Source: Azolla caroliniana
Lineage: Eukaryota > Plantae > Polypodiophyta
Length of the DNA stretch: 64,000 nt
Direction: 5' to 3'
NCBI GenBank assembly: GCA_043228905.1
Contig: JBHGNT010000014.1
Coordinates: forward strand, 16,306,001 to 16,370,000
Made by a program: the position numbers and the translations under genes. Under the pieces are notes generated by a model. It did not search any database. It was not told where the DNA came from and saw only the letters and a list, made by a program, of their open reading frames with translations. This document shows, one piece after another, positions 2,905 to 32,600 of the stretch. Numbering within the stretch: the first letter of the stretch is position 1; the number at the start of each line of letters is the position of its first letter.

Positions 2905-3848
2905 ACGTTTCGACAATTACAAAGAACCTGGTGTCGGTTAGACAGATCGTCGACCAGGGGATGCAAATGCAGTTTACGCATCTTGGGTGCTTCACCAAGG
3001 AAGAGGGACAATTCATCGCACCAGGGCGTTGGGACAAGAGGATGTTTATCCTCGACACCAACAACGTAGGCACCGCCTTGTTCGCAAAAGGACGAAAAGT
3101 CGAGTCGGATATCGACTTATGGCATAATTGGATCGGCCACGTCAACTATTAGAGGCTTCAAGACCTGTAATCGAAATAGGTTGTTTTCGGATTGCCAAAA
3201 TTTTGTGGTTGGAAGGCCCAAATTTGTGAAGCCTGCCATCTCAGGAAGCAACACTAGCTTACGTTCCCCATTGAAAGAAATCAGAGTTGTAACAAGCTCG
3301 ATCTAATACATTCAGATGTCTGGGGACCGTCATAGAATGTTAGTCTTGGCAGGAGTCGATATTTCGTCTCCTTCATTGACGACTACAGCCGGCACACATG
3401 GATCTACCTATTCGAAAGGAAAAGCGAAGTTTTCGATTGTTTCTGAAACCTGCAAAGTCTTGTGGAACGAGAAACGGAGACGAAGATCAAGTGTCTACGG
3501 TTGGATTGTGGAAAAGAATATTTTTCTGGCCAATTCAATAGTTATCTACAGTAGAAAGGAATTTAGAGGGAATTCAGTTGTAGATACACACCGGAACAAA
3601 ACAGTGTGGTCGAAAGAAAGAACCGGTCTATTGTGGAGGCGGCACGAGCCATGCTGGAAGAGAAGAGCATGCCCAAGTTCTACTGGGTTGAGGCGGTCTG
3701 GACGATCGTCTATATCCAAAACCGGATCGGGGATAAGGTGTCAACACATGCTATATTTCAGGCGCAAGCCGAATTTAAGGCACCTTAAGATATTTGGTAG
3801 CATTGCCTATGTGCATGTACCGGATGAGAAGTGGGGGAAGCTGGACCC

Positions 3849-5372: not shown

Positions 5373-7349
5373 GACCCAAAGTCGGAGAAGTGTATCCTTG
5401 TTGGCTACTCACATGAGCAGAAGGGGTATAAGTTCTACAAGCCCCGGACAAAGACGATTCGAGTAAGTCGAGATGTCAATCGACATCCTGGTACTCTCTA
5501 CCGACTCCGACCTTCAACCCCGACCCAATTCCGGAGGATGAGGCCAGTGAGCCCGAAACGATCTGGGCAGAAGATGAGGAAGGATTCGACACTCTAGACG
5601 AGAGTCCGATCTCATTCCGGCTAAGTGAGCCGAATGAGCGACTGAGTCGAAATGACCAGTCATATGAAGAGTCGGCGAGTAGTGGAGACTCGTCTGACTT
5701 TCCCCACGTAAGGAACCGAGGAGATGGTTCATGTGCAAAGAGAAGGGGAAGAAGAAGATGTTGGAATATGACTCTGGTAGATATGAGTCGGATCAGAGTG
5801 AGTCTTATTCCGGAAAGAAATAAGGCGGATCTTGAGAAGAGAAGTCTGAGTCAGTCAAGAGAGCCCAAAAATCGACAAAGCAGAAATTGCGCCGATCTAC
5901 CCGCTAAAAGCACCCCGTAGTTCGATACGGATATAACGAGTATATGGCGCATCATTATGTGTACATGGTGAAGGTGGCAATCGTGCGCGAGCCGGTGAGC
6001 TACGACGAAGCGGCTAAGGATCCGAACTGGCAGAAGGCCATGGAGGAAGAGATGCATGCGCTCATGGAGAATGAGACGTGGGACTTGGTGGACGTACCGA
6101 AAGGAGTGAAGCCGATCGGTTTTCGGTGGGTATACAATGTCAAATACAACACTGATGGCTCCGCCAACCGGTACAAGGCCTGGTTAGTGGCAAAGGGCTA
6201 TGCGTAACAGCACGACATCGACTACGATGAGACATGCACGTCGATCGTAAAGATGACGACCGTTCGTGTCTTGCTTGCGGTGGCAACGACGAAGGGGTGG
6301 TATCTACATCAAATGGATGTGAAACATGTGTTCCTGCAAGGTGATCTTGAGGAACAAGTATACATGGTTCAACCCCCCGGATTTCAGTTCGGAATGAACA
6401 CATCGGTCGTTTCTCGGCTGAAGAAGTGCCTTTACAGACTCAAGCAAGCCCCTCGCACATGGAACGCGAAAATCAAGCAGTGACTGCGTCGGATGGGGTT
6501 TGCCGCGTCGAGGTCAGACTCTTCCCTATTCATTCGGCGAGGTCGGAATGGACTGGTAAGCATTTTGCTTTATGTTAATGATTTAGTCATCGCCGACACC
6601 GACCTGGCCGAAATTGACCATGTCAAGTCCGAACTCGCGGCATCGTTTGACATGAAGGATCTTGGGGACCTTCATCACTTCCTCGGGATTGAAGTGATCC
6701 GCACCTTGGAAAGCATATTGATCAGTCAATGCCACTATGTGTTGAGTATGCTCTTCAAATTCGGTATGACAGAATGTAAGTCCATCTCAACTCCTCTGGA
6801 TAGGAATGTTGAAAACGTAAGTGTTTGCGGAAGCGTAAAACAGAGAACACAGAGAGAGAGAGACAGAGACAGAGAGAGCAGAACGTAATTTCAAAATTAT
6901 ATCAAGACTCTGTATACACACTGTGCTAAGTAGCACTATTTATACAAGTCCTCTTGGGACTGACAGAAGTACCATGTACTTCAATGCTCACACGAGCATC
7001 TGACAGTTACTACGAGACTATAGCTACCTAGTAGTCTATCCTATACTAGGCTTCCAATTGGACTTCCGGTTACGGATTGCACCCAGCCTCCACTGCTTGC
7101 CGGTTCGGTTGCTCACCGTTCATACCGATCCGTTTCGCCCGATCTGTCTCGCTTACCGGCTCCGGCTTATTCAGCCGATCCGGCTCCGGTTGAGCTTGCC
7201 GCTCAACACTCCCCCTCAAGCTCAACCTGAGGTGGGGTCGTAGTGTTGACCTCTGTGGTAGTTGGTTCTTCCAACCAACTTCCCCTGGCGTCACTCCTGT
7301 TGGGATTTCGGTCCCTCCGGATGGGATGTCCGGAGATGAATGACGGCAA

Positions 7350-7645
7350 GCCCGGTTGCGGTTACGGAACCGGATGATGAAGAGTACCCGGCATGAAGCC
7401 GGATAAAGAGTACCCGGATACGGAGCCGGATGATGAAGACCCCGGTTACGGAGCCGGATGCTGAAGACCCCGGTTATGAAGCCGGATAAAGAGTACCCGG
7501 ATACGGAGCCGGATGATGAAGACCCCGGTTACGGAGCCGGATGCTGAAGACCCCGGTTACGGAGCCGGATGACGAATGTACCCGGATACGGAGCCGGATG
7601 ATGAAGACCCCGGTTACGGAGCCGGATGACGAATGTACCCGGAGA
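7350..7645 (+). repeat. ~27-30-bp CCGG-rich tandem repeat in U3 of LTR B (second copy ~12270-12565)
   Basis: About 10 units of CCGGTTACGGAGCCGGATGATGAAGACC-like sequence. Confidence 0.9.
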
Positions 7646-8129
7646 GAGATCCGGATGCGGGGACATATTTGTGAATATGTTTGCCAAGAGCCCTTGAGGC
7701 TATATTTGTAAATAGCCCAAAAGTCATATGTGTATAAATATGACTTAGGGCAAACAGTTTTATGTTGTTGTTGCTCATTTTCTGTTTTCCACGAAGAGGG
7801 AGCGAAGTGAGAGCAGCCGAGAGAGTGTGAGAGACGAAGAGGTCGTTGCCTCAGTGTATTACCGCCGCCTGTGGCGAAGACTGTGAGCTCAAGGTTGTTG
7901 CCTTGTAGCTTCATCATTGTACATCTCTGCATATAGTGATAGTTGGAGTTTGAGGACTCCCGTGGTTTTTCCCACTTAGGGTTTTCCACGTAAAATATCC
8001 TGTGTACTCTTCTCCCCATTATCTTCGTGTATTTTGTAATTCCTGTTTTCTGAAAGTTAATCCTATTTCTCGGTTGTGGCCGAGCACTGCGTGTAACAAA
8101 TTGGTATCAGAGCGACGGTAACACAGAAA

Positions 8130-11100
8130 ATGGAAGGCGGCGGCAGCGGGCAGCCGATGATGATGGTGCTGAATGCACAGAATTACGCCGACTGGAAGAT
8201 CAAGATGGAGGATCTTCTGATTGTTCGGGACCTGTACGAACCGATTGACAGGTCGGAAATACCGAAAGGGGTACTTGAGTCGGAGTGGAAGCTCCTGAAC
8301 CGGAAAGCCGTAGCGACGATCCGGCAATATGTCGATGTAAGTGTCCTGCAACATGTGGCGAACGACACCAACGCATACGAGATGTGGAAGAAGCTGTCGG
8401 GCCTCTATGAGAGGAAGAATGCGTTGAACCGGACCTCCCTGATGAGGAAGATAGTGAATCTCAAGTACCGGGACGGCGAGAGTATGGTAGAACACGTAAG
8501 CACGTTCATGGGATTCGTGAATCAGCTTGCGGCGATCAAGTTCCCGTTGGAGGATGCAATGCAAGCCATCATCCTGATGTGTACATTGCCGGAAAGCTGG
8601 GAGAACTTGGTGGTGACTCTCAGCACCTCGTGCACCGAAGATAACTTGTCCTTACAAACTGTAAAGACAAGTATTCTGAATGAAGAAGCGCGTCGGAGAG
8701 ATAAAGAACCGGTCTCCGACTCGAAGGCGCTGCTTACCGAATCGGAACGGGGAAGACAGTGGAACCGGAGTCCGCAAAGACGGGAGAAGTCGGGGACCCG
8801 GTCGCAGTCAAGAGGAAGGCCAACATGCTTCCACTGTGGGAAGCCGGGGCACTTCCGGAAGAATTGTCGGCATTACCGAAAGGACAACGGAGCCGACGAC
8901 ACCGATTCGAAGAAATCACCGGAGAGAAACGGTGCATACCGGGGAGCCACGGACCGGAGAGGTCCGGATCGGCGAGGGCAGGACCGGAAAGGAACGACGG
9001 CACTTGCGGCAAGTGAAGAAGAGATAATGCTTATTACCGAAGAGAGGGAGCTGAACCTTGCCGGTGTAGAGATGACCTGGGTGGTCGATTCCGGAGCGTC
9101 GTTCCACCTGACCCCGGAGAAGAAATACTTCTCATCCTACACAGCCGGTGAGCACGGCTGTGTCCGGATGGGAAATGAAGGTACGTGCCGGATAGCCGGC
9201 ATAGGAGACGTGTGGCTGATGACATCAACCGGATGCAAGATGCTGTTGAAGGATGTGCGACACGTTCCGGAGGTCCGATTGAACCTGATCTCGGCCGGGA
9301 GGCTAGATGATGAAGGCTACACGGGTAGCATCCGGAACGGTGTCATGAAGTTCAGCAAGGGGAGCCTGATAGTGGCTCGGGCCCGGAAGGTCAACACACT
9401 GTACCTGATGAATTCCCGGCTATGTCTGGAAGAGCTGAATGTGGCAGCCGACACTGCCGGTGAGCTGTGGCACAAAAGACTGTGCCACATGAGTGAGAAG
9501 GGGATGAAGAGGCTTGCAGAAGACAACCTCATTCCAGTGAAGCATGTGCACCTGGAGAAGTGCACCGACTGCCTGGCCGGTAAGCAAAACCGGACCTCCT
9601 TCCACTCAAGGCCACCGACGAGACGTAGCGCACCATTGGAGTTGGTGCACACCGATGTGTGTCAGGTAGAAACGAAGTCACATGGCGGAGCCCAGTACTT
9701 CGTAACATTCATTGATGATCACAGCCGGAAGCTGTGGACGGCACCGTTGAAGACAAAGGACCAAGTGTTGTGCGTCTTCAAAGAACTCCACGCGAGAGTG
9801 GAAAGGGAATCCGGCAAGAAGCTGAAAGCGATACGAGCGGATAACGGAGGGGAATACCGGGGGCAGTTCCAGGAGTACTGTCGCTCGAAGGGAATCCGGC
9901 TCGAGTTTACTGTGCCGAAGACGCCGGAACTGAACGGGCTGGCCGAGAGGATGAACCGGACCATAATGGAGCGGGTCCGGAGTATGCTGGCGCATGCGAA
10001 ATTACCCAAGGGGTTTTGGGCTGAGGCAATGTCGACGGCGACATATGTGATAAACAGATCACCCTCAGTTCCTTTGGACGGAGACACGCCGCAGAGAGTG
10101 TGGACCGGTAAGGAAGTGTCCTACCGGCATCTGAAGGTGTTCGGGTGTCTCGCATACGTGCATGTGGCAAAGGACCGGAGAGGAAAGCTAGATCCTAAGA
10201 CCCGGCCATGCATATTCCTCGGTTACGGCGACGACGAGTTCGGCTACCGAGTATGGGACCCGGTCGACAAGAAGATATTCAGGAGTCGAGACATCATCTT
10301 CATGGAGGACAAGACACTCGCCGACTGGGAGTCGGAGAAGAAGATGAAGAGCTCCAAGTCGATCGGTGAGGATCAACTCTACGAGGAGCAGTCCCGACCG
10401 GCAAGGGACCGGTTAACACTCGAGGATCCGGCCGAAGACGGTGAAGAAACAGAACCGGCCGAAGAAGATGAAAATGATACCGGAACCGGCCCCGATCCCG
10501 AAATGGATTCGGATGAAGAAGAAGAATCGGAAGAACCGGTTACCGAAGCTCCCGAACGGAGATATCCTCTAAGAGAGAGGAGAGCCCCCCGGAGATTTCC
10601 GGAACCAGAGCACGTGCTGCTAACCGACGAGGGGGAGCCGGAGAGCTTTGAAGAAGCAAAGGATGACACCCAGAGCCGCAGGTGGTTGAGTGCCATGCAG
10701 GACGAGATGGATTCCCTGCATGAGAACCACACATATGAACTTGTGGAGTTGCCGAAAGGAAAGCGGGCACTTCGAAACAAGTGGGTGTTCAAGCTGAAAC
10801 CGGGAGATGCCGGAAACCCCACGAGATACAAAGCCAGGATCGTGGTGAAGGGGTTCCAGCAAAAGAAGGGCGTCGACTTCGACGAGATATTTGCCCCGGT
10901 AGTGAAGATGACCTCCATCCGGACGGTGCTGAGCATAGCGGCAAGCATGGACCTCGAGGTAGAACAGATGGACGTGAAGACAGCATTCCTTCACGGTGAC
11001 CTCGAAGAAGAAATCTACATGCAGCAACCGGAAGGATTCGAGAAGAAAGGGAAGGAGCACCTGGTATGCCGGTTGAAGAAGAGCCTTTACGGACTGAAGC

Positions 11101-12206
11101 AGGCTCCCCGGCAATGGTACCGGAAGTTCGACTCCTTCATGACCGACGAAGGGTACCTCAAAACGCAGTCCGACCACTGCGTGTTTGTGAAGAAGTTTGA
11201 AGGAGGAGACTTCCTAATACTCCTCCTGTACGTGGACGACATGTTGATCGTCGGACGGGACCAGGTCAAGATACGGATGCTGAAGAAGGCTCTTCACCGA
11301 ACCTTCTCAATGAAGGATTTGGGTCCGGCGAGGCAAATACTAGGGATGCACATCATCCGGGACCGGAAGAAGAAGCAGTTGTGGCTGTCACAGGAGAAGT
11401 ACGTGACGAAGGTGCTTCACCGGTTCAACATGTCGGAGGCAAGACCGGTCGGATCGACCCTCCCGGCAAACTGCAAGCTGTCCAGCAAGCAAAGCCCCAA
11501 GACAAAGGCTGAAAAGGAGGATATGATGAAAGTACCATATGCCTCAGCCGTCGGGAGCTTGATGTACGCCATGGTATGTACGAGACCGGACATCGGATAT
11601 GCAGTCGGAGTGGTGAGCCGGTACATGAGCAATCCCGGCAAAGAGCATTGGAACGCGGTCAAGTGGATACTCCGATACCTGAAGGGCACGGCAAACGTGT
11701 GCCTCCGATTCGGCTCCGGTAAGCCCGAACTCGAAGGCTTTACTGATTCTGATATGTCGGCTGATGCAGATACCAGCCGGTCCACATCAGGGTATGTGAT
11801 GACGTATGCAGGGGGAGCTGTTTCGTGGCAGTCGAGGCTGCAGAAGACGGTTGCGTTGTCAACCACGGAGGCGGAGTACATGGCGGCTGTTGAAGCCGGC
11901 AAAGAAATAATATGGATGAAGGACTTCATTAGAGAGCTCGGTATCCAGCAGGAGGAGTACCGACTCTACTGCGACAGTCAGAGTGCCATCCACCTTGCGA
12001 AGAACGCGGCCTATCACTCCCGGACGAAGCACATCCAGCGAAGATATCACTGGATCCGGGAAAGGATAGAAGACAAGGAGTTCGTGCTGACGAAGGTCCA
12101 CACGGACGAGAACGGGTCGGATATGCTGACCAAAGTGCTCACACCCGACAAGCTGGGAGCGTGCCGGAAGAGAGTCGGATTGGAGAGACATCCCATGCCG
12201 AAGTGA
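8130..12206 (+). CDS. Copia Gag-Pol polyprotein, 1358 aa (gag, CCHC knuckle, protease, integrase, RT, RNase H)
   Basis: Single uninterrupted ORF; CFHCGKPGHFRKNC, WVVDSGASFH, HTD..DNGGEY..NGLAER integrase core, QMDVKTAFLHG, LYVDDML, RTKHI. Confidence 0.97.
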   Translation: MEGGGSGQPMMMVLNAQNYADWKIKMEDLLIVRDLYEPIDRSEIPKGVLESEWKLLNRKAVATIRQYVDVSVLQHVANDTNAYEMWKKLSGLYERKNALNRTSLMRKIVNLKYRDGESMVEHVSTFMGFVNQLAAIKFPLEDAMQAIILMCTLPESWENLVVTLSTSCTEDNLSLQTVKTSILNEEARRRDKEPVSDSKALLTESERGRQWNRSPQRREKSGTRSQSRGRPTCFHCGKPGHFRKNCRHYRKDNGADDTDSKKSPERNGAYRGATDRRGPDRRGQDRKGTTALAASEEEIMLITEERELNLAGVEMTWVVDSGASFHLTPEKKYFSSYTAGEHGCVRMGNEGTCRIAGIGDVWLMTSTGCKMLLKDVRHVPEVRLNLISAGRLDDEGYTGSIRNGVMKFSKGSLIVARARKVNTLYLMNSRLCLEELNVAADTAGELWHKRLCHMSEKGMKRLAEDNLIPVKHVHLEKCTDCLAGKQNRTSFHSRPPTRRSAPLELVHTDVCQVETKSHGGAQYFVTFIDDHSRKLWTAPLKTKDQVLCVFKELHARVERESGKKLKAIRADNGGEYRGQFQEYCRSKGIRLEFTVPKTPELNGLAERMNRTIMERVRSMLAHAKLPKGFWAEAMSTATYVINRSPSVPLDGDTPQRVWTGKEVSYRHLKVFGCLAYVHVAKDRRGKLDPKTRPCIFLGYGDDEFGYRVWDPVDKKIFRSRDIIFMEDKTLADWESEKKMKSSKSIGEDQLYEEQSRPARDRLTLEDPAEDGEETEPAEEDENDTGTGPDPEMDSDEEEESEEPVTEAPERRYPLRERRAPRRFPEPEHVLLTDEGEPESFEEAKDDTQSRRWLSAMQDEMDSLHENHTYELVELPKGKRALRNKWVFKLKPGDAGNPTRYKARIVVKGFQQKKGVDFDEIFAPVVKMTSIRTVLSIAASMDLEVEQMDVKTAFLHGDLEEEIYMQQPEGFEKKGKEHLVCRLKKSLYGLKQAPRQWYRKFDSFMTDEGYLKTQSDHCVFVKKFEGGDFLILLLYVDDMLIVGRDQVKIRMLKKALHRTFSMKDLGPARQILGMHIIRDRKKKQLWLSQEKYVTKVLHRFNMSEARPVGSTLPANCKLSSKQSPKTKAEKEDMMKVPYASAVGSLMYAMVCTRPDIGYAVGVVSRYMSNPGKEHWNAVKWILRYLKGTANVCLRFGSGKPELEGFTDSDMSADADTSRSTSGYVMTYAGGAVSWQSRLQKTVALSTTEAEYMAAVEAGKEIIWMKDFIRELGIQQEEYRLYCDSQSAIHLAKNAAYHSRTKHIQRRYHWIRERIEDKEFVLTKVHTDENGSDMLTKVLTPDKLGACRKRVGLERHPMPK

Positions 12207-13029
12207 AGGGGGAGTTTGTTGGGATTTCGGTCCCTCCGGATGGGATGTCCGGAGATGAATGACGGCAAGCCCGGTTGCGGTTACGGAACCGGATGATGAA
12301 GAGTACCCGGCATGAAGCCGGATAAAGAGTACCCGGATACGGAGCCGGATGATGAAGACCCCGGTTACGGAGCCAGATGCTGAAGACCCCGGTTATGAAG
12401 CCGGATAAAGAGTACCCGGATACGGAGCCGGATGATGAAGACCCCGGTTACGGAGCCGGATGCTGAAGACCCCGGTTACGGAGCCGGATGACGAATGTAC
12501 CCGGATACGGAGCCGGATGATGAAGACCCCGGTTACGGAGCCGGATGACGAATGTACCCGGAGAGAGATCCGGATGCGGGGACATATTTGTGAATATGTT
12601 TGCCAAGAGCCCTTGAGGCTATATTTGTAAATAGCCCAAAAGTCATATGTGTATAAATATGACTTAGGGCAAACAGTTTTATGTTGTTGTTGCTCATTTT
12701 CTGTTTTCCACGAAGAGGGAGCGAAGTGAGAGCAGCCGAGAGAGTGTGAGAGACGAAGAGGTCGTTGCCTCAGTGTATTACCGCCGCCTGTGGCGAAGAC
12801 TGTGAGCTCAAGGTTGTTGCCTTGTAGCTTCATCATTGTACATCTCTGCATATAGTGATAGTTGGAGTTTGAGGACTCCCGTGGTTTTTCCCACTTAGGG
12901 TTTTCCACGTAAAATATCCTGTGTACTCTTCTCCCCATTATCTTCGTGTATTTTGTAATTCCTGTTTTCTGAAAGTTAATCCTATTTCTCGGTTGTGGCC
13001 GAGCACTGCGTGTAACAACTCCGCCTTGC

Positions 13030-18124: not shown

Positions 18125-20341
18125 CAGAGAGAGCAGAACGTAATTTCAAAATTATATCAAGACTTTGTATACACACTGTGCTAAGTAGCACTATTTATAC
18201 AAGTCCTCTTGGGACTAACAGAAGTACCATGTACTTCAATGCTCACACGAGCATCTGACACTTACTACGAGACTATAGCTACCTAGTAGTCTATCCTATA
18301 CTAGGCTTCCGATTGGACTTCCGGTTACGGATTGCACCCAGCCTCCACTGCTTGCCGGTTCAGTTGCTCACCGTTCATACCGATCCGTTTTGCCCGATCC
18401 GTCTCGCTTACCGGCTCCGGCTTATTCAGCCGATCCGGCTCCGGTTGAGCTTGCCGCTCAACAAATCTGAAGCTCCGCCCAACTTTGGAACGCATGCAAC
18501 CCAAAAAGTTTCCGCCAAACAGTCGAAAGCCTCATATATCTAACCATCACCCGGCCGGACCTCAGCTATCCGATTGGACTGATTAGTCAATTTATGGCTC
18601 ATTCAACGCTAAGTGCATGCCCATGTGTCTTCGTATGACACAACGCATCGGACCGTGAAGAAGATTTTGGGAGAGTATCTCTCCGGTGGCTGAGACAATC
18701 GTTCAAACCATCTTGGGATGATTGAGGTCGTCGTATCATCACTGATGATCATCTCTTGAGTAGTTGATCCACTTTATGGGTCGCTACTTAGGCTGCTCTT
18801 TGAGTTAGCTTGACCCGTGGTGGCGGCTTGCCATGTTGCCGCTCTAGTGTGTTGTGCTAGGCTATCAAGAGAAATCAAGGCGTCCTAAAAAGTGACTCTT
18901 ATGACTTCAATTTGTAGTCGGTTTGTGCATCTCTGACTCGTTGAAAACGACGTCCGAACTTTGGATGATTTGCCTGTTTAACAAAGGAAAACACATTTCC
19001 GAGATCGTGGCTCAAGCTTTTGATGATCATCCTTAGGCACAAGTGTGAATGCTTCACAACCAAAAATACGTAGCTTCTCATAATTCGGCCTCTAGCCAGT
19101 CTAGAGCTCCTGCGGAATATGAAGTCCTAGAAGCCTACTTGGGAACATGTTGATTATGTGCACTGCAGTGAGTAGTGCCTCAGCCCAGAAACCATTCGAT
19201 AGTTCAACAAGTTGCATCATGGTGACAAATCGTTCCTGAATTGTCCAATTCATGCGTTTTGCAACGCCGTTTTGTTTTAGACTATATGGAGTTGTCAGCT
19301 CTCATCTGATCCCACATTGTCAGAAATATTTGATGAATTCGTGGAGTGGAATTCTCCACCATTATCCGGTCTTAAGCATTTCAACTTTGGGCCTGATTGA
19401 TTTTCAACCATTGCAAGCCACTCTTGAAAGATCGTGAACACTCGATCGTTGGTTTTGATCATATACGCCCACACTTTTCTTGTTGAGTCATCAATAAACG
19501 TGAAGATGTAGGAGGAGCCGCCAAGAAACTAATGTGGCATCGGGCTATAGACGTCCGAATAGACTAAGTCAAGGGACTCAACTCTCTTGGCTCTCTTGTT
19601 GGGTGTGAGACATCAATCTATTTGCCGTATTGGCAGTGCACACAGAACTGGTGGTCAGAGAATAAGAGTTTGGGGATGTATTCGGCTTTGGATAAATGCG
19701 TAATGCCGGCCTTGCAGAGGTGTCTGAGTCGGCCGTGCCACAATGATGACACAGGAATGTTGACCAGAAACAAGTCCCCCTCTCTTAGTGTGGACTATAG
19801 AGGGTACATGGAATGTACTTTTTGTCTTCGAGCAAGCCGGTGTCGCGAAGTTTCGCGCGCGCGTGTTACTTGGGTGGGACCATTGGGGTCTTGGACTAGG
19901 GAGTACTCAAGGGATAGAGAAGACCCGAGGTTTGCTTTACGACAATACTATTTCCCGACCCCTTCCTGAGCAAGGACTCATTGCCCTTTGTTTTGTGAGG
20001 CCAGTGGCTCTCGTTGATCACGACTCGTCGACCTTTCGAGATCACCACATGAGCCAAGTGATCAAAGTGGTACAAGCAAGATGAACACACAAGGGGACAA
20101 TAACACAAACACGAATGCATGTACGTCTTTATGAGGAGGAGAGGTGCATGGGCACGCCCGAACGCTCCCTCGTCACAAGACGTCGAACATACGAGTGTCA
20201 TGATATGGCAAGACTCGAACCCATGACCTTATGGTATATGGGTCGAGCTCTTAACCATCACACCATCTATTGTAATTCATATGATATTATTTTCATTTAT
20301 GTTTAATTATAAGAAAGTAATGTATATTCCAGATTTCTCTG

Positions 20342-20359
20342 GAACATTCTAGAAGTTTC
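20342..20359 (+). promoter_or_regulatory. Perfect 4-unit heat-shock element in chromovirus LTR (also 26355-26372)
   Basis: GAAcaTTCtaGAAgtTTC, about 20 bp upstream of TATAAAAG at 20380. Confidence 0.7.
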
Positions 20360-20724
20360 AGGATTACTCCTGACAACACTATAAAAGAAAGCACTAGGCA
20401 TTATGTTGAACCAAATTGGTTCAACGCCAGTCTTAAGCCTCTCAGCCGCTTTGTACTTATCTTTTCACATAATATATTAGTTGTTGTCATCATCTTTCTC
20501 TCTCTCTCTCTCTCATCCTCGCTATCTCTCTCTCTCTCTCCTCTTCTCACTTCCTTTCTCGGGAATCTTACGCAGTCCCGTCCTCTTAGTACTAATAGTA
20601 CTACTCTTCTTAGTACTAATTCCATCTTTGCTTTAGTGCTATTCCTGACAGTTTGAACCAATTTCTTCCTTTCCTCCAGCCTACTTGTCGTTCTCCCTCA
20701 TCCTCCTACCCTTTTCCCTATACT

Positions 20725-21882
20725 ATGGCTACTGTTAGCGCCCAAGAATATCAATCCGTTTTCTCCGAGTTACAGTGCCTAAAAGAAAAGTTTGTTGCCC
20801 TGGAACAAGAAAACCAACGGTTGATAGGGGATCTGCAACAAATCGCTCTCGAAAAACAACAAACGCAACAACAACATGGGGAGTTAGCATTACTGGTACA
20901 ACAACTCGAAGCAGCGTTGCAACAACAAGGATCAAGTCCCCAAGGATTTCATAAAGAACCCAAGATTGGACTTCCTGTGAAATTTGATGGAACGCGATCG
21001 CAATTCCGGGGATTCCTTAATCAGGTACGCTTAGTCATCCAGATGCATCCTTCCCGATATCCCACTGATGCATCTCGAGTCGGCCTAATAGGCACGTTAC
21101 TTAGCAGCTCAGCCTTGGCATGGTTCGCTCCGCTTCTAGAAAAACAATCACCCTTGCTTAATAACTTTGAAGATTTTATTGGTGAGTTTAAAGCCTGCTT
21201 TGGAGATATCGATAGCATCAGGACGGCGATCAACAAGATCCGAAGATTGCGTCAAGGCGATCGTCCAGCCTCTGCCTACGCGGCGGATTTCCGTCTACTC
21301 GCCTCAGATATTCCCTGGGATGATCAGGCCCTCATGGAGCAGTTTCGCTACAGCTTGCGCAATGATGTCAAAGATCTGCTTTTAACCTTCCCCGAAGAAC
21401 CAAAGTCTCTTACGGAGGCAATCAGTCGAGCGATCCGATGCGACAACCGCCTTTTCGAACGGTGTTCAGAGCGTCAGTTACAAATACCACGCTCTCGGCC
21501 AGAACCCACATACGCCTCAGTCACGGCTAAACCGTTTGCATGCGATGTACCCCAAGCCAATATTCCGACACCGATGGAGATCGACACCATGCGTCGACGC
21601 GGCCCGTTATCGGAAGAAGAAAAGCAACGACGATGTGCCAATCGATTATGTCTTTATTGCGGTGGACCAGGGCATATCGCCATCAATTGTCCCCATAGGC
21701 CAAGAAGACAGGTAAATCAAATCGTCGCTTGTACTAAACCCGAGTCAATTCTTCCCTTCGGAGTGTCTGATAGTATTAATAGTACTAATAGAGTGTCAGA
21801 TAGTATTCATAGTACTAATAGCCCAAGTATCTCAAACAAATTTGAAATCCTTAGTCAATTAGATGAAGAGTTAAATGATTGA
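20725..21882 (+). CDS. Chromovirus Gag (retrotransposon gag domain plus CCHC knuckle)
   Basis: Open frame from ATG 20725; PVKFDG, LRQGDRPASAYAADF, PMEID, CLYCGGPGHIAINC. Confidence 0.85.
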   Translation: MATVSAQEYQSVFSELQCLKEKFVALEQENQRLIGDLQQIALEKQQTQQQHGELALLVQQLEAALQQQGSSPQGFHKEPKIGLPVKFDGTRSQFRGFLNQVRLVIQMHPSRYPTDASRVGLIGTLLSSSALAWFAPLLEKQSPLLNNFEDFIGEFKACFGDIDSIRTAINKIRRLRQGDRPASAYAADFRLLASDIPWDDQALMEQFRYSLRNDVKDLLLTFPEEPKSLTEAISRAIRCDNRLFERCSERQLQIPRSRPEPTYASVTAKPFACDVPQANIPTPMEIDTMRRRGPLSEEEKQRRCANRLCLYCGGPGHIAINCPHRPRRQVNQIVACTKPESILPFGVSDSINSTNRVSDSIHSTNSPSISNKFEILSQLDEELND

Positions 21883-24800
21883 GTCCAGCCAAAATAGGAG
21901 CCGTTTGGTTGGACAGCAACCCTAGATCTGTACAACCCATTAGTGGTTCCATTCCTTCCAAGCAAGTTAGCAATGTGTTCCTAGCCCAAGTCATTGTTAG
22001 TACTAAAAGTACTCCCCCAGTACCCGTCCTAGCACTCTTAGATTCCGGAGCTAATTCCTGTTTCATGGATTGAAATTTTGCCCAAGCTTCTCAGATATCC
22101 CTAAGAAAACTTCCTTGTCCCGCATATGTAGTAGTCATTGATGGTAGTCCCATTGCTTCCAGGAATATTGTAGAAGAATCAGAACCCATTCAAGTTGTCC
22201 TAGGTAGTTTTGTGTGTGTAATATCATTTAATATAATTAGTAGTGCAGAGCATCCCATTGTCCTAGGATTACCTTGGTTTGAATTACATAATCCAACCAT
22301 AGATTGGAGGACAAGAGAAGTCCAATATCGACCACCCCAAGAATCTACTCACCGAGTTTCGACCATTTCACTCCATCAATTACGCGAAGAAGGACACAAG
22401 GAGGCAGTGTTCCTATTTGCAATATCAATACACCCTTCCAGCACTATTAAGAAGGACTCCTCAGTACAACTTCCGGCAAAATATCATCCTTATGCCGATG
22501 TATTTGACAAGGTAAAAGCCGGTACCCTTCCTCATCACCGTCCCTATGACTGTCCCATCGATTTACAACCAGGAACCGAGCCACCATGGGGACCAATTTA
22601 CAACTTGTCACCCACCGAATTAGAAGTCCTTCGAGCCTACATAGAGGAGAACTTGGCAAGCGGGTTCATCCGTCATTCGAAATCTCTGGCCGGTGCACCC
22701 ATCTTCTTTGTTAAGAAGAAAGATGGCTCACTTCGTCTCGTCGTTGATTACCGCGGATTGAATAAGGTCACCATCCGGAATAGGTATGCACTTCCTCTTA
22801 TATCAAGTCTTTTAGAGCGAGTTAATGGTGCCAAGTTTTTTACCAAAATCGATCTACGAGGAGCGTTGTTGCGTTGTTACGCGCGTGCGTGGAGAAATGC
22901 GGAACCACGCGGGTCTTGGACTAGAGAGTGATGGAGCGTAGGAAGTCGTGCTTCACTGTTTCTGGGGCATCCCAGAAACACACCGGAAGCAACCGAAGGG
23001 AGAGAGAGAGAGAGAGAGAGAGAGAGCGTGCTTAAAACCAACTCACACACACACACACACACACACACAGCCCAACCCGACTCACGCCTTATGCACAGAA
23101 AACGCAGGAAAGGGTAAGCACCCGACGCCAACAACGACGCAAATATACACAGGCAAACGTATATATATATATATATATATAAAGGGAAGAATACATTCCC
23201 GGCGTCGAGCCGGACTGAGGTAGGTTACAGTAGTCGTCTGCTGTCAAGCCGCCGTCGGGGAGCTCTCAGCTCGTCGCGCCGAGCGGGGTCTTGCACAGGA
23301 GGCCGAACCAAAGCAAACCCTAAGCAAAACACGAAGAAGGAGGAGAAGAAGAAGAAGAACCTAACTCTAAACCTAACGGTATACCCTCTAATGCAAAATG
23401 GGCAACCCTTTCCCAAAGGGCGTTCCCCTCCTTTTATAGAACAAGGAGAGGGATGCGTTACAATGTGGGACAAATCCCGACTTACATGGGATCGTCTGTC
23501 CCGACTTGACTACTCTTCGGCGCCATAAAGGCGCCCTCGATATTCACACTAAATGTACATGGGTGCGTACACACGCTGCACCCCGCCGATGTAGCCAATG
23601 TTTCCCGGTTTCCGCCTCTGGCCGAAATTCTTCACGACAACGTATAACCTCGTGCGGATCCGACCGGGAGATGAATGGAAAACCGCCTTTCGCACGCGGT
23701 ATGGGCATTTCGAGTATACTGTTATGCCGTTCGGCCTAACCAACGCACCCGCAGTCTTCCAACACATGGCAAATGATATATTCAGAGACCTCTTGGATAT
23801 CTGTTTGATCATCTATCTTGATGATCTATTGATTTATTCGAAGACCCAGCAAGAGCACGATTCTCATGTACTATTAGTACTAAAGCGACTCCGCGAGAAT
23901 GGTCTTTATGCCAAGCTAGAAAAATGTAGCTTTGACTGCAAGCAAGTGGAATTTCTAGGCTACATCATCTCCTCAAAGGGCATCGCCATGGATCCAGCTA
24001 AAGTCCAAACTGTACTAGAGTGGCAAATTCCACGGTCGGTACGAGATGTACAATGTTTTCTAGGTTTTGCTAACTTCTACCATAAGTTTATACAGGATTA
24101 CTCGAAGATTATCCTACCCCTCACACAACTTACGAAGAAGGGCCAAGCATTTCTTTGGTCCATTGAAGCAGATATGGCTTTTTGGCATCTTAAGAAAGCC
24201 TTTACATCAACACCGATTCTAGCTCATGTGGATACTAGCAAACCATTCATCATGGAGGCCAATGCTTCAAATTTCGCCCTCGGTAGCATCCTTTCTCAAC
24301 AAGGAGATAAAGAAGAGTTGCATCCGGTGGCTTTCCATTCGCGCAAATTCGATGTTGCAGAAATCAACCACGAAATACATGACAAGGAGTTATTAGCCAT
24401 CGTGGATTCATTTGTGCAATGGTGGCATTTCTTAGAGGGCTCTCCACATCATGTCGTTGTCTTTAGTGATCATAAAAATCTTGCTTATTTCCAGAACGCT
24501 CGCGTACTAAATCGACGGCAAGCTTGATGGGCGCAATTCCTCACGTGTTTCGACTTCAAAATCACATATCGACCGGGGAAGCAGCAAGGAAAAGCAGATG
24601 CACTATCACGACGTTCATATCTTGCACCTCGTCCTGGTGATCCAACATTTGATAATCAAAAGCAAGTAATTTTGGGACCAACACGATTGCACACGACGCG
24701 GATTTTTCACACCCCGATGGATTCACGGATTACCGATAACATACGTGCAAACTTGAAGACGGATAGTTTTGCTCAAGACATCCTGGCACACATTGATACT

Positions 24801-26197
24801 TCTCAGGCATCCTGTTCTCAGTCTCAACAACCAGGTATTGACTACCGACAATTCGAATATCATGATGGTTTGTTATTCTTTAAAAAGCGCGTATATGTCC
24901 CTGATTGCTCCTGTCGCCTTCACATCGTCCAGCATTGTCACGACACCCATACGACGGGACATTTTGGTAGTACTAAGACATTGGAGCTAGTGCAGCGATC
25001 TGTTTGGTGGCCCCACATGCGCCGTTTTGCTGCCGAGCAAAGATGCCACGATACCATCCATATGGCTTGTTGGAACCCTTACCGATTCCAAGTAAGCCGT
25101 GGCAGTCTATTTTTCTTGATTTTATCACAGATCTGCCGGTCTCGCAGCGGTTCGATGCTATCTTAACCGTCGTCGATCGATATACGAAGATGGCACATTT
25201 TGTTCCGTGTACTAAGGCCATCACTAACGAGGAAACCGCCGCCCTAGTCATGCGTGAGGTATTTCGGCATCATGGCCTCCCAGACAGTATCATCAGTGAC
25301 CGAGGACCGCAATTTTTCTCCAAATTTTGGCAGCATCTCTTCAAGATGCTCAAGGTCTCTTGCAACCTCTCCTCCGGCTACCATCCTCAGACCGATGGGC
25401 AGGCAGAACGAACAAACCAAACACTGGAGCAATATCTCTGGTGTTTCCTGAGTTATCAACAGGACAATTGGGCCGAGATTCTCCACTTTGCGGAGTTTGC
25501 GTATAATAATGTTGTTCACTCCTCGACTCAAGTCTCCCCATTCTACGCTTATACCGGTTCTCATCCTCACTGGTCGGTGATCGACACCCCTGAGCTACCT
25601 ACCAATCCTCGTGCTGGGGATCATTTGGAGAGACTACGCAAGATCCAGACAAATCTCTCGACTCATCTTCGTCATGCTCAACAGACACAGAAGACTTACG
25701 CGGATCGTCATCGGCTTCCCTCCTCTTTTGCCATCGGAGATCGAGTATGGCTCTTACGTCGTCACATCAAGACTACTCGACCGTGCGACAAGTTGGATTA
25801 TCGACGACTCGGTCCTTTCCGTATTACGGGTAAAGTTAATGATGTCACATTCCGCCTTGATCTCCCTCCGCAGCTTTAGATACATCCGGTTTTCCATTGT
25901 TCTCTTCTTGAACCTTATAAAGCAAACACCATTCCCGATCGTGTTACACCACCGCCAGCCCCGCTGGAGTTGGACGTCGGCCCGGAGTATGAAGTTGCTG
26001 CCATCCTCGATTCCAAACTTATTCGCAACAAACTTTATTATTTGGTCGATTGGGATGGTTATAGTCTGAGCGAACGCACTTGGGAACCCGTCGAGCATGT
26101 TGCCAATGCTCAGGATCTGCTTGCTGATTTTCACCGAAAGTATCCGAACAAACCCGGTCTGCAGTCAACGCCGACTCGTTCCACTCGTCGTCTTTAA
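21879..26197 (+). pseudogene. Chromovirus pol (PR, RT, RNase H, integrase, chromodomain), interrupted by stops and solo LTR 22867-23639
   Basis: LLDSGANS; [26 protein letters not shown]|YNLVRI, YLDD; KELLAIV; SDRGPQF, HPQTDGQAER; EYEVAAILDS..YLVDWDGY..TWEP. Confidence 0.9.
22867..23639 (-). mobile_element. Solo LTR (773 bp), 4-bp-TSD group, inserted in chromovirus RT
   Basis: TGTTGCG...TTCACGACA; flanks GCGT/ACGT; splits DLRGA/YNL; GCGGAACCAC..GGGTCTTGGAC motif shared with 1822-2904. Confidence 0.82.
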
Positions 26198-28283
26198 GGG
26201 GGAGATAATGTCATGATATGGCAAGACTCGAACCTATGACCTTATGGTATATGGGTCGAGCTCTTAACCATCACACCATCTATTGTAATTCATATGATAT
26301 TATTTTCATTTATGTTTTATTATAAGAAAGTAATGTATATTCCAGATTTCTCTGGAACATTCTAGAAGTTTCAGGATTACTCCTGACAACACTATAAAAG
26401 AAGGCACTAGGCATTATGTTGAACCAAATTGGTTCAACGCCAGTCTTAAGCCTCTCAGCCGCTTTGTACTTATCTTTTCACATAATATATTAGCTGTTGT
26501 CATCATCTTTCTCTCTCTCTCTCATCCTCGCTATCTCTCTCTCTCTCCTCTTCTCACTTCCTCTCTCGGGAATCTTACGCAGTCCCATCCTCTTAGTACT
26601 AATAGTACTACTCTTCTTAGTACTAATTCCATCTCTGCTTTAGTACTATTCCTGACAACAAGGAAGACACAAACACACGCACGAAATGCTCATACGCCTT
26701 TATGAGGAGGAGAGGTGCATGGGCAAGCCCGAAATGGTCCCTCGTCACAAGATGGTCAAACGTACAAGGAAGACACAACACACACACAAATGCTCGTACG
26801 TCTTTATGAGGAGGAGAGGTGTATGGGCACGTCCGAAACGCTCCCTCGTCACAAGACGCTCGAACGTACAAGGAAGACACAAACACACACACAAATACTC
26901 GTACGCCTTTATGAGGAGGAGAGGTGCATGGGTTAGCCCGAAACGATCCCTCGTCACATGACGGTCGAACGTACAAGGAAGACACAAACACACGCACAAA
27001 AGGCTCATACGCCTTTATGAGGAGGAGAGGTGCATGGGCAAGCCCGAAACGGTCCCTCGTCACAAGACGGCCGAACGTACAAGGAAGACACGAACAAAGA
27101 AAGAAGGAAAGAAAGAAACACGAATGATATCAGCCAAAGAAATAAATACGTGTTTGATTCCAACGCAAGAGGACCCTTTATAAAATAGGGTTTGATTACA
27201 ATGGCAACTTATAGTTAACCACAAGCTCAATCAAAACATAAATACTAAATGCCCTTAGAGACAAGAGCAAATCCGAACACAGCGAAGATGAACACATGAC
27301 CACCACCAAAATGTCAATCCCAACGAACCACGACCACCCGAATGGCGAGCACACGGGCTCGCAACGACGAATGGGGCGGAGCAACATTGAACCAACGAAG
27401 CTTGGGCTCACGAGCACTTTGAGTGCCGACGTGAAGAAGACGAGCACGTGGCGGTGGGGGGATGAAGGGGTATGAGATGAAGAGAAGTGGTGAATAAGAA
27501 GATGAAGAGCTCCGAAGGAAAATTGGCGATAGTCTCCTCCTCCCCAAAACGTCCTCCCCGAATGAGCCCCCCTCGACCTCCTTTTATAGGAAAAAGGAAG
27601 GGGAGGTTACCAATTTTGTCTTTAATGTAAAAAAGGAATAAAATTCCTTAAATCACGTTGCACTATAAGACTAGATTTGAACCGTGCACCTCTAACTAGA
27701 AATCAATGTGACTATCCACTAGCCCATTAACTCTCTCTTATATACCTCTATAAATTAATAGCTTGTCTCCCCTCTACCTTTTATCTCTCCTCTCTTTTAC
27801 TTTTTGCACGAGCTTCTATATCTCCTTTCCACCCTTTCTTTTCCCTTTTATTTTGCATATGCACAATTAATCGCCTTTGTGTGCACACACATTGCACATG
27901 CACATTTTGATCCCCCCTTTCGCCGGTTTTCCCACTCTCGAGCACACCACATCACGACATCGGAGGTTCCCCCAATGGAGTGTCCACCCTCCTGATGAGA
28001 AACCAACATAGATGCCATCTTTATATGACTGTTTGACTGAGATCAATGGTCTTGAGAGCATACATGTAAAACATTGTGTAGTACTAATGTAGAGCCACCC
28101 GGAAGGTTGAGCTCTACAATGTTGACTCCAATTATGGCGCAATGTTGGGAGTTTTAGACTTGGACTGAGTCAGAATGTCAGGCCGAATATTGCCGAAATT
28201 GGGATCTATGAGGGGTCACACGATAGGACACACCCGAATCCAAGAGCCATGTGCTCAATTCCTCAATCATGAGCAAAACTTCT

Positions 28284-29379
28284 TGTTACCATACGAGATG
28301 TGCAGAGAGTTGAGTGTTATGAGTGAGGGTGAAGAGACTTAATGATGTTGTATGTATGTGTAATGTGTATGATTACGAGTGTGAGTATATGCGTAAGCGT
28401 AAGTGTGAGTGGACGGATAAGATGAGGAGTGAGTGAGTGATTAGTGTGAATGGCCAAGGGGGTTGCACCCCTCTTGTAACTATTTAACCCCCTTATGGGG
28501 AATGAATGAAACATGAATAAGTTCTCTCTCAATCTCTCTCTCTTGACATCTCTCTCTTTCTATCTCCCTCTCTCATGTTGAACCCCCTTGGGAGGGGGGT
28601 GGAGCCATTCTAGGCACCCAGCCCCACCCCGCAATCCTTATCAATCTATCAACCCTAAACTGATAACACTATTTTGGCACGCTTGGTGGGACAGAGGCAT
28701 GCGGCGAAATTTTAAAAAACTTGAGGCTAGAGGACAAAATTTCAAAATTTCAAGGGTATATAATAGAATTTTAAAAATCGAAGGGCAACGACGAGATTTT
28801 GAAAACTTATCAACGTGAAAGAAATGGACGCGATCAACTCATGATAACTCACAAAATACATGGAAGAACACACATACACACAACGTGATTTTGGGCCCAT
28901 GATGAAGTTCGTGTGCCGATAGAATGAGATCTTCATGTAAAAGAAGATTTGCTGACTGACGAAGATGTTCGAGTCAAGCATTCCAATCGAGGGAGTCGAT
29001 AGTAGAGAAGACCGATGAAGTTCCGGTCGAATAGAGATCAAGGCATGTGGGATCAACGTGCAATGCAATGTCCCACGTGTGTGCCATAATGTGTTACCGT
29101 ACGAGATATCCGGAGAGTTTACTGTTATGAGTGAGGGTGAAGAGACTTAATGTTGTTGTATGTATTGTGTAATGATTATGAGTGTGAGTATATGCGTAAG
29201 TGTGAGTGTGAGTGGACAGATCATAAGGGGTGTGAGTGAGTGATTAGTGTGAATGGCTTGCATCCCTCTTGTAACTATTTAACGCCCTTATGGGGAATGA
29301 ATGAAACATGAATAAGTTCTCTCTCAATCTCTCTCTCTCCCTCCCTTGACGTCACTCTCTTTCTCTCTCCCTCTCTCAT
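28284..29379 (+). mobile_element. Small non-coding LTR element (TRIM-like): LTR 28284-28668, ~420-bp internal region, second LTR from 29092 truncated at ~29379
   Basis: Direct repeat; TGTTACCA...TGATAACA termini; PBS TGGCACGCTTGGTGGGAC 28675-28692 (tRNA-Arg type, as in Tat/Ogre-group gypsy). Confidence 0.8.
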
Positions 29380-29552
29380 AGACGACCACATTATAGGATA
29401 TCTCATCAAGCTTTTGAGGCATCTCGATCTCTATATGAGTCTGGTTATACTAGCTCAAGGTATGGCCTGATGGTGAGTTGGCTTCTTGCAAACCGTCTAG
29501 ACATTAATAATCTACGCCCCCTTAGGTACAACCACACGATCGATAATACTTT

Positions 29553-29633
29553 TGCTAAGAATTAGGTAAGTAATTAAGCAAGGATTAATTAGTACCTAGT
29601 TATGTGATTAGTTGATAAGCGGAAGATTAAGTG

Positions 29634-29685
<52 letters not shown>

Positions 29686-32600
29686 CTTATGAACAACACA
29701 AGATGGGGGATAAGTAAGTATATTAAATTAGCATTATCATCATCAAATGCAAAAATACCCACAATGAGGTATATATACATCTCATGTGCAAGGGGGCACA
29801 TGTGTGAGTGGAATATAGGTACTAAGGTGTGCGTAATGATGGGCCATATACTCGTTGTAGCCGAGCCGAGTGACGAGATTCTTCTCTCTAGAAGAGCGTC
29901 GAAGTAGAAGAGCGCCTTCTTTGCTCCGGGTGTACGCATGATGGGTACACTGAACTCACTATCTAGTGAGGGAGCCGACACATCTGAATCACTGTCGTCG
30001 GGGTGATCAACTTCGTATTCGGGCATCTTACCTTTGCCTTTGTCCAAGTTCGTACTTGGCCACGACGTGCTTGGGTCGCGTGGGGGCTCTTGTGGCCCAC
30101 TAGGCTTTGTCGTAATCGAACTTTCTTCGAACATGTGTTCGAAGCGATCTCCATCTTCTATCTCTTGTTCGGCGGATTCCGGGTTGAGCGGAGTCGGAGT
30201 CGAAGTTGCCTTTGGTGCGTACCACGATGCGGACTCATTGAAGACTACATTTCGACTTACATGAACTTCTCGCGTCGACGGGTTGTAGCACTTGTATGCT
30301 ATCTTCTCGGATGAGTATCCTATGAGGATACATTCCTCCGACTTCGCGTCGGGCTTCTGTCATTGTTCATTCGGAATGCGTACATTCGCAATGCTTCCGA
30401 AAACCTTGAGGTGTGACAGGATCGACTTCCTTCCAACGACGAGCTCGTATGGAGTTAGCTCATGGACTCCATTAGTGGTGCACCGGTTCATGAGATAGAC
30501 GGCCGTGGATGCCGCTTCAACCCAATAGAAATTCAGCATGTGCTTCTCATGCATCATGGCGCATGCTACCTCGAGTATTTGCCGATTCTTCCTTTCGGCG
30601 ACTCCATTTTGTTGGGGTGTGTGTCGGCATGAGAATTCTCTACGAATGCCTTCACTTTGGAGGTAGGAGGTGAATTCGTCAGAGAAGTACTCATTTCCTC
30701 CATCCGATCGTAGGCATCGAATGTGCCAACCGGTTTCTTTTTTGACTTGCCCCTTGAGCTTTTGGAAGTGGGAGAGCACTTCGCTTTTCTTCTTCATCGG
30801 GTAGATCCACGCGCTACTCGGTTTCTTTTTTGACTTGCCCCTTGAGCTTTTGGAAGTGGGAGAGCACTTCGCTTTTCTTCTTCATCGGGTAGATCCACGC
30901 GTAGCGCGAGTAGTCAACGATGAAGGTTACGTAGTATCAGCATACGCCGATCGTCGGCGTTTGAGCCAGTCCCCATACATCTGAGTGTATGACGTCGAGG
31001 AGGCCTTTGCTCGCGTGGCTCTCCTTCGAGAATGGGAGTCAATGTTGTTTGCCGAGTTGACACGCTTCGCATACTCGGTCGACTCGTTTCGACTCAAATG
31101 TCGGAAGTCCAATGAAGACTCCCTTGGTTTGCATCGCTCATAGCCGTCAGAGGTTTATGTGGCCGATTCTCTTGTGCCACAACTCGATGCTTGTCTCGGT
31201 TTTGAGACCTTTGGCATACATTGTCAATTTCACCTTGTTCGAATTGAGGATGAACATTCGGTCATCTCTTCGCCCCTTAGCTATGAGTCGGCCATCTTTC
31301 TCAATGAAACAACCTTCAGTGTTGAAGCGGACTTGCATGCCTTGCTCCACGATTTGGCCGACCGAGACCAAATTCTTCGTTATTGTGGGCACGTGCAAGA
31401 CATTCTTGATGCAAGTTTGCTCGCCTTCTTTCCCGAATGGGACATTGCCGATGTGCCATATGGGGTGCGTGGTGTCGTCTCCCGTCTCTATGAAGCCGGG
31501 TCGATCCGGCGTTCATAAATCACGAAACCACTCTTCGTGAGATGTCATGTGATGTGAGGCGCCAGAGTCAATGTACCATACATCTTCCGAGTTGGAGGTG
31601 CTTGCGGAGTTGGAGTTCGTCATAGAGTTTGCTCTATGCCTCATTACAAACATTCCGCCACGGTCACCGTAGTCGGAATTTGGGGCGTAATTTGTAAACA
31701 TTTCACTACGATTGTTGTAGTCAGAATTCGACGCATGATTCGTGAACATTTCGCTACGGTTGTCGTGGTCGGAGTTCGATGCATAGTTTGTGAGGTGTCG
31801 ACTTGTTGAAAGCGACTCACTTCTCTTTTATTGACACTCCACCTCGTAGTGGCCGATTTTGCCGGAATAATTGCAAGTTGCAGGCCTCGTTTGCCAACCA
31901 TGTTCGGCATGGAAGCTCCCCCTTCTTCCGAAGGTTCCTCGATGGCTTCCGTGAAGGTTTGAGTTCCCTTTGCGTGATGGGTCGAATTGACCTCTTCTAC
32001 CGCCGTGACCTCCTCCTCGGCCACCGTCCGAATTCGAGAAGAACATTTGTCCTTCTGACGTCTTGCTTTTCGTTCGGACGTGGTTCTCTTTGACCAATAA
32101 CACTGATTGGAGGTCGAAGAATGAAGGAGGGGTTTCTCTCGCCAAGATTGCCATCCGTAATGGATCGAATCGTTGTGTGAGGCCTCCCAAGCATACTTGC
32201 ACCATCTCGTCTTCGTCGACGTTTATTTTGATGGAGCCAAGAGACTCGCAAATGCTCTTGTTGCGTAGTCAACGTTCTTTGAGTCGGGTTGATTTTCTTG
32301 AGCGTCGTTGATGTAGCTCGAATACCCTTGGCCGACGAGGTATTGGGTCATCTTGTACTCCCAAGATAAATAATTGCTCCGGTCTAGCTTTTCACTAGGG
32401 AGCGAGCTACCCATTTGTGTGTTCATGTTGATTAGTGTCTTCTCTTCTTTTGCTTTTCTTCCTCGATCACGTACACGTGCTACGTAGCGGCACTACAGTA
32501 GCGGATAACCGGAATTTGTCGTCGGCGTTTCGAAAACACAATTATGAAGAGGCAGATGGGCTTAGTGGATGTGCTAAACCACACACTCTAATACCATGTT

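Follow-up and report, generated by a model that had tools for sequence, protein, structure and literature searches.

A sense copy of tRNA-Arg in the place of the polypurine tract in a likely Ty3/gypsy retrotransposon family from Azolla

Introduction

In the canonical scheme of Ty3 and HIV-1, as set out in the available text of PMC5371799 and PMC13191261, an element has direct LTRs with TG..CA ends, a primer-binding site (PBS) after the 5' LTR and a primer at a fixed position before U3, where a polypurine tract (PPT) that resists RNase H primes the plus strand. For integration, the plus strand has to begin at a set point immediately before U3 (PMC5371799, same portion). Reviews, in the sections available, treat PPT priming as general for LTR retrotransposons and retroviruses; the accessible parts of PMC4408406 and PMC3185511 describe PPT priming of the plus strand only, and the available portion of a preprint reports a conserved PPT junction in Brassicaceae Athila (bioRxiv 10.64898/2026.03.20.713144). 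The Azolla element described here shares the direct TG..CA LTRs, the PBS after the 5' LTR and the fixed primer position before U3, and differs in having a sense tRNA copy where Ty3 and HIV-1 have the purine tract.

Several described systems resemble this arrangement in part. Ty3 and Drosophila Gypsy have a bipartite or second PBS, likewise an additional tRNA-related site towards the 3' end of the RNA. In the available text on these elements (PMC5371799, PMC1635307), that site is complementary to the tRNA on the genomic RNA, binds other parts of the minus-strand primer and coexists with a PPT, whereas the Azolla site is tRNA-sense, takes the place of the PPT and could bind a tRNA only on DNA of the minus strand. 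TRIMs such as Helenus, Ajax and Cassandra are also short non-coding LTR elements with small-RNA-derived sequence, and their tandem LTR-internal arrays have counterparts in two loci of the present dataset (L096 and L074); in Helenus, however, the tRNA-like promoter lies inside the LTR and a PPT is present, whereas the Azolla tRNA copy lies outside the LTR, in the PPT place (PMC10886601, available text). The self-priming elements Tf1, Tcn1 and TAR also depart from the standard primer set, although they alter minus-strand priming while the Azolla family would alter plus-strand priming (PMC6317226, in the part available). A literature search, covering mostly titles and the beginnings of abstracts, found no inverted PBS or tRNA copy replacing a PPT.

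Results

Anatomy of the window copy

The element was found in a 64-kb stretch of Azolla caroliniana DNA, referred to here as the window, and lies on the forward strand. Its 5' LTR (28284..28668, 385 nt) has TG..CA ends with a TGTTA/TAACA terminal inverted repeat and contains a TATA-like box (28481-28487), which we take to be part of a promoter from general LTR anatomy. The left end of this LTR adjoins cleanly an older copia fragment on the reverse strand (27962..28283, 77 % to 63474-63149), into which the element was inserted. A 6-nt spacer (28669..28674), also present in L106, leads to the 18-nt minus-strand PBS (28675..28692). Joined directly to the PBS is what remains of the non-coding 3' internal region of the family (28693..29036). 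It is 73–78 % identical to the corresponding part of L090, L115 and L109, and approximately 2 kb of 5' internal DNA is missing. There follow a sense copy of tRNA-Arg(UCU) positions ~38–58 (29037..29056, by alignment to the tRNA of L074), a 13-nt insertion between tRNA positions 58 and 59 (29057..29069), which forms a hairpin and is decayed in this copy, and the inverted PBS (29070..29086), which is a sense copy of positions 59–76 with a 1-nt deletion and a CCA end, in the PPT place. A 5-nt spacer (29087..29091) separates the CCA from the 3' LTR (29092..29379), which is truncated at its 3' end.

Both PBS motifs were found where an earlier note on this DNA had placed them. That note had missed the upstream reach of the tRNA likeness to 29037 and the truncation of the second LTR, of which ~90 nt are gone beyond 29379; nor had it recognised that the short internal stretch results from a deletion and is low-copy. 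The LTRs are direct repeats with 85.4 % identity over 302 columns. Since the right end has been lost, no target-site duplication could be compared at the window copy, and none of the other loci examined has one unambiguous insertion with both flanks.

No purine tract precedes the second LTR, as the note had stated; the longest purine run in the preceding 30 nt is 2. Across the two strands of the window, 1,905 sites end in CCA. Only the two PBS motifs match the 3' 18-mer of tRNA-Arg(UCU) at 15–16 of 18 positions, and the next best site matches at 12 of 18, which indicates that the two motifs are not due to chance. ARAGORN detected 0 tRNAs in the 64 kb, and an Rfam search over 27500-30500 gave no credible match (one chance match at E 0.93).

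Two other elements in the window served as controls, both with a normal PPT. One is a young intact copia (7298-13018) with 99.9 % identical LTRs, a 1369-aa ORF and a PBS that is presumably of the tRNA-Met type; the other is a gypsy element (20196-26657), labelled chromovirus-like from its gag type and tree position, which is inserted in a 104–106 nt tandem repeat.

Distribution and abundance of the 3' site

Contigs of four of 16 listed runs (three samples) were aligned to 28590-29310 at 80 % likeness, without motif selection. The PBS-to-internal junction was represented by one contig per run with 0–2 differences (depths 31.5, 15.4, 35.6 and 7.3). Summed depth, which is not a copy number, was ~2–3x that of a single-copy contig at 28690-28714, ~250–500x at 29065-29089 and ~100–195x at 29090-29114, the latter two in all four runs. 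Most of the depth (82–94 %) has the more tRNA-like letter at 29078 and 29080, which indicates that the window copy has decayed. Three GTTC-containing motifs are present at 28907-29031, inside the deepest-covered internal segment.

Scanning metagenome contigs for the motif yielded 88 matches, in 87 loci that are short-read assemblies of repeats and in some cases chimeric (L081). Three LTR subfamilies account for 46 matches (A, the window's own, 28; C, 8; D, 10), comprising 36 distinct flank-plus-motif sequences, and several assemblies may show one genomic copy. Four further matches form a sister family, termed T. The remaining 38 were excluded from family counts, being either chance matches or ordinary PBS junctions from other plants in the reverse reading; four long ones were used as controls, of which only L104 has both LTRs, and the Retand-type element in L104 has a normal PPT. 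A relative of the window's chromovirus-like gypsy is nested in L063, which ties the loci to the Azolla host or a close relative. The same scan of viral contigs gave 41 loci, kept outside the family counts, and an RT scan of viral contigs confirmed 0 of 14 candidates.

All 46 A, C and D junctions have the 17-nt form of the site and a spacer of 4–5 nt; the search pattern permitted spacers of 4–7 nt, and any conservation inside it follows from the selection itself. In the 30 nt upstream of the TG, no run of purines exceeds 4 in 45 of the 46 junctions; the junctions were selected by motif and so are uninformative on whether PPT copies exist. Of 49 LTR left ends, 45 are preceded by the site, while the other four adjoin unrelated sequence that lacks a PPT. 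In four loci the order LTR, PBS, internal region, site, LTR is complete, with internal regions of 2.3–2.7 kb in which no coding region was recognisable; full LTRs were seen in L096 and L106. Of the internal DNA of these complete loci, only the 3' part has a match in the window's internal region, which indicates that the short size of the window copy reflects a rare deletion and that the 3' site is a feature of the lineage.

The window copy is therefore a decayed, low-copy deletion derivative of 2.3–2.7 kb non-coding elements. Its full 18-nt PBS, fused to 3' internal DNA, could be the product of a mis-transferred plus-strand strong-stop. The earlier note had described a TRIM-like element, a label that does not extend to the family: elements under about 1 kb amplified as such were not seen, given internal regions of 2.3–2.7 kb and a short junction in the window at ~2x single-copy depth. 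TRIMs have a PBS and a PPT at their internal termini, according to the available text of PMC10886601, and here the PPT is absent, nor is there a tRNA-like promoter inside the LTR as in Helenus. Direct LTRs with TG..CA ends and a tRNA PBS are those of LTR retrotransposons in general, the PPT alone being absent. The family is high-copy and likely a non-autonomous Ty3/gypsy.

The inverted tRNA-Arg site claimed at a single locus is thus family-wide, with 46 matches in three subfamilies and high depth in all four runs. The note had named two outcomes that would speak against its proposal, a normal PPT in other copies and a one-off chimera or inversion of two elements, and neither was seen in the copies visible. 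As far as these sequences allow it to be judged, the replacement of the PPT by a tRNA copy is real, conserved and lineage-wide, within a known superfamily.

Two further features of subfamily A loci or their surroundings were observed. Telomere-like repeats lie right before the LTR right end in L096, L099, L102 and L106. In L106, two tRNA-Pro(TGG) genes were called (5196-5269 and 6205-6276), one of them where a solo LTR is cut off.

Structure and origin of the tRNA-like site

The reference tRNA-Arg(UCU) was read from L060, L063 and L074, and the site was aligned to the L074 copy. Positions 29037-29086 correspond to tRNA positions 38–58, 13 inserted nt, and positions 59–76 minus one base. The part copied from positions 38–58 comprises the 3' side of the anticodon stem, the variable loop and the 5' side of the T-arm, and is conserved across subfamilies (alignment A2). 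The insertion hairpin has a 4-bp stem, paired in 95 % of alignment cells, and a variable 3-nt loop.

Plant tRNA-Arg carries the same modifications as are found at the tRNA positions where RT stops. On a tRNA template, HIV-1 RT stops at position 58, at position 37 and at the tRNA 5' end (PMC13191261, available text). The site breaks at position 58/59 and just after position 37, which suggests that it probably arose from RT read-through of a tRNA.

Polarity and a likely coding partner

Coding sequence was found only for subfamily D, in separate loci. L088 carries, after an LTR and its PBS, gag with a CCHC knuckle, protease and the first part of RT. In L086, RT-RH and the beginning of INT are separated by a deletion from the end of an extra ORF, after which come the site and an LTR. 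The extra ORF is complete in L094, where 895 aa are encoded in sense at 1742-4426 (-), ending ~55 nt before the site; no Pfam family was detected in it above the cut-off. Its C-terminal half includes a long stretch that looks coiled-coil-like by eye. The right-end LTR motif had 22 matches, of which 12 are followed by a PBS and nine by unrelated flanks, with one apparent false match. Together with the position of gag and protease after the PBS in L088, this shows that the tRNA copy precedes the 3' LTR.

Subfamilies D and A have in common a PBS that begins TGGCGACCAC, the 3' site and the termini, whereas BLAST detected no LTR similarity between them. Subfamily D is therefore a likely, though not proven, autonomous partner of subfamily A. 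The order Gag-PR-RT-RH-INT without a chromodomain was found for D, pieced together from separate loci and close relatives. This likely partner resembles Athila, Tat/Ogre/Retand, Phygy and Selgy in its Gag(CCHC)-PR-RT-RH-INT order, in an extra sense ORF close to the 3' end and in sites of the tRNA-Arg type, and the absence of a visible chromodomain in the relative P0019 agrees with plant non-chromovirus Ty3/gypsy (PMC6317226, in the part available). The PBS type of D differs from the tRNA-Asp/Asn PBS of Athila (PMC6317226, supplement file 5).

The earlier note had likened the PBS to those of the Tat/Ogre group, an affiliation that was not borne out. Archaeal RNase H was absent where tested, i.e. 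between PR and RT (L088, P0002) and between RH and INT (L086, P0019), while it was detected in control L104. P0019 is a 78 % relative without a tie to the 3' site; its sequence stops shortly after INT, again with no archaeal RNase H. The nearest named relatives of the D RT are fern, liverwort and pine elements, mostly at ~45–60 % identity. The loci likely come from a non-seed plant, probably a fern. An RT tree was reconstructed from 41 rows (16 chosen unnamed and 23 named matches offered, plus locus rows), without TatI-III, Ogre, labelled Athila or Phygy reference rows. In this tree the D RT is sister to the Adiantum rows (100/99), with which it groups, and not to the Pyrus, Tanacetum or Pinus rows; the three Retand-type rows lie apart in their own clade. 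The likely partner differs from the plant non-chromovirus groups above in lacking archaeal RNase H where tested and in an RT that stands apart from seed-plant rows. These results suggest that it is probably a fern-type non-chromovirus Ty3/gypsy element and not Tat/Ogre.

tRNA sequences at LTR left ends in family T

All four family T loci have true tRNA-Arg(UCU) sequence and one shared 5-nt spacer at the left end of the LTR, and this spacer differs from the right-end spacers. The tRNA sequence is 18 nt in L047, ~36 nt in L060 and 76 nt with CCA in L063 and L074. At three of the four boundaries the sequence stops where copying of a tRNA molecule would naturally end; the break in L060 is not at a known RT stop. 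BLAST gave no link between family T and subfamilies A, C or D, and the regular 3' end of T did not appear in the four loci. The 5' PBS of family T, which follows the right end of the LTR in L060 and L063, has the bulged form of 17 nt and corresponds to the A/C/D 3' site in reverse complement.

Two of these loci have unusual structures. L074:1-2055 consists of tandem units of one LTR and a full tRNA-Arg(UCU) with an encoded CCA, and nothing else; ARAGORN calls three of the copies tRNA genes. It may be read as a minimal TRIM array or as LTR-LTR junctions that were amplified. L047:1777-2424 is a solo LTR with exactly 18 nt of the tRNA 3' end plus the spacer, in a ~60-nt flank duplication, and has the appearance of a cDNA fragment captured by repair. 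The lengths of the tRNA pieces lend indirect support to reading them as footprints of a real tRNA at the left end; alternatively, they could be deletions of an inherited tRNA copy.

Discussion

Priming of the plus strand

The LTR ends are clean, with TG and CA against unrelated flanks, and the only conserved feature just before U3 is the CCA end of the site. The reading that best fits these data, with a probability of roughly 0.6, is that a second host tRNA anneals to the site on the minus strand and primes the plus strand there. One tRNA would prime the minus strand at the 5' PBS, and RNase H would clear the RNA over the 3' site. The nucleocapsid of Gag would then anneal tRNA-Arg(UCU) over its last 11 nt and over 5–6 nt beyond a 1-nt bulge, and possibly also over positions 38–58 with the hairpin looped out. 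RT would extend this primer through the spacer, U3, R and U5, both tRNAs would be removed by RNase H, and integrase would trim the 4–6 nt spacers at both ends.

Pairing energies were calculated from RNA parameters as a proxy for RNA:DNA. The window PBS is fully complementary to the 3' 18-mer of tRNA-Arg(UCU) if G:U pairs are allowed (-37.1 kcal/mol) and is atypical for the family. The usual PBS begins TGGCGACCAC, as in nine of the 12 LTR ends that have a PBS after them, and is read, we assume, by another tRNA-Arg. At the 3' site, the tRNA 3' 18-mer pairs with the minus-strand DNA at -33 to -35 kcal/mol in all six loci.

The main rival is that the element's own tRNA-like RNA, either surviving RNase H or cut after the CCA, primes the plus strand as a PPT does. 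This is unlikely, though it deserves serious weight: the position and polarity of the segment equal those of a PPT, a second tRNA would be unnecessary, and the segment can self-fold in subfamilies A and C (-19 kcal/mol in the window copy; 87.7 % of A2 cells paired). The fold is, however, unexceptional (z -1.6, with 14 of 200 shuffles as good), and no compensatory changes were found in the 15 pairs tested, the search pattern having fixed much of the 3' side. RNAalifold returned a weak and different consensus (-4.1 kcal/mol, 0 of 8 pairs covarying). The signals within the T-arm copy are mixed. Subfamily D has a G to A change relative to the tRNA in the T-stem copy that keeps a wobble pair with the tRNA and breaks the element's own hairpin, which fits tRNA pairing; in subfamily A the base opposite number to U at tRNA position 54 is often A, a change in favour of the element's hairpin and against pairing with the tRNA. 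In D, the outer stems are for the most part disrupted, yet the tRNA likeness is kept. Furthermore, the segment is not purine-rich, unlike the PPTs of Ty3 and HIV-1 (PMC5371799, available text), and a primer made from the element's own RNA would leave unexplained the true tRNA at the LTR left ends of family T.

The readings beyond a host tRNA and an element-derived primer are, even when taken together, quite unlikely. It is improbable that the tRNA-like segment has another job, such as RT or Gag binding, packaging or an internal promoter, with the plus strand starting by, for example, DNA fold-back or a short G-rich fragment. Conservation of the inner hairpin stem with a variable loop would suit such a role, as would the resemblance of the T-loop copy to what we take to be a polymerase III B box. 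Against this, the CCA lies at a fixed 4–5 nt from the LTR start, as expected of a primer end, and there is no other candidate primer within 30 nt before the LTR.

Pairing of the 5' PBS with the inverted site, which would circularise the RNA or allow self-priming, is very improbable. The earlier note had proposed it beside priming by a second tRNA; the latter stands as the best reading of the data, while the former is not supported as a general mechanism. The two sites pair well in the window copy (-26.3 kcal/mol) and in L056 (-23.6 kcal/mol), but at only -8 to -13 kcal/mol in five of the six loci tested, including the coding locus L088 (five of five tested with the TGGCGACCAC PBS). Two-site pairing is not general because most copies have a different 5' PBS, and circularisation is disfavoured by the far stronger pairing of the tRNA with the site. 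A one-off chimera or inversion of two elements via their terminal inverted repeats is scarcely credible: the short form in the window is close to single-copy, with ~15 % difference between its LTRs, but the 3' junction recurs in 46 matches of three subfamilies, at high depth in four of four runs and in four ordered loci, and this reading is refuted for the 3' site, the rare event being the internal deletion only.

Implications

Priming of the plus strand by a host tRNA can be placed in a wider frame. From the sequence comparisons, it seems rather probable that the Azolla families belong to a fern-type Ty3/gypsy lineage in which both strands are primed by host tRNAs, usually two different ones, and the PPT has been abandoned. 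The tRNA copies at LTR left ends (18 nt, 36 nt and full length) would then be fossils of a retained plus-strand primer.

Such elements may be overlooked or given the wrong orientation by annotation tools in which a PPT is scored or required, whereas PBS-anchored methods would see both ends. The family bears on what fixes the left end of LTR cDNA. If plus-strand priming by a tRNA is true, RNase H-resistant primers would be dispensable, and RT would be able to start from a tRNA on a DNA template.
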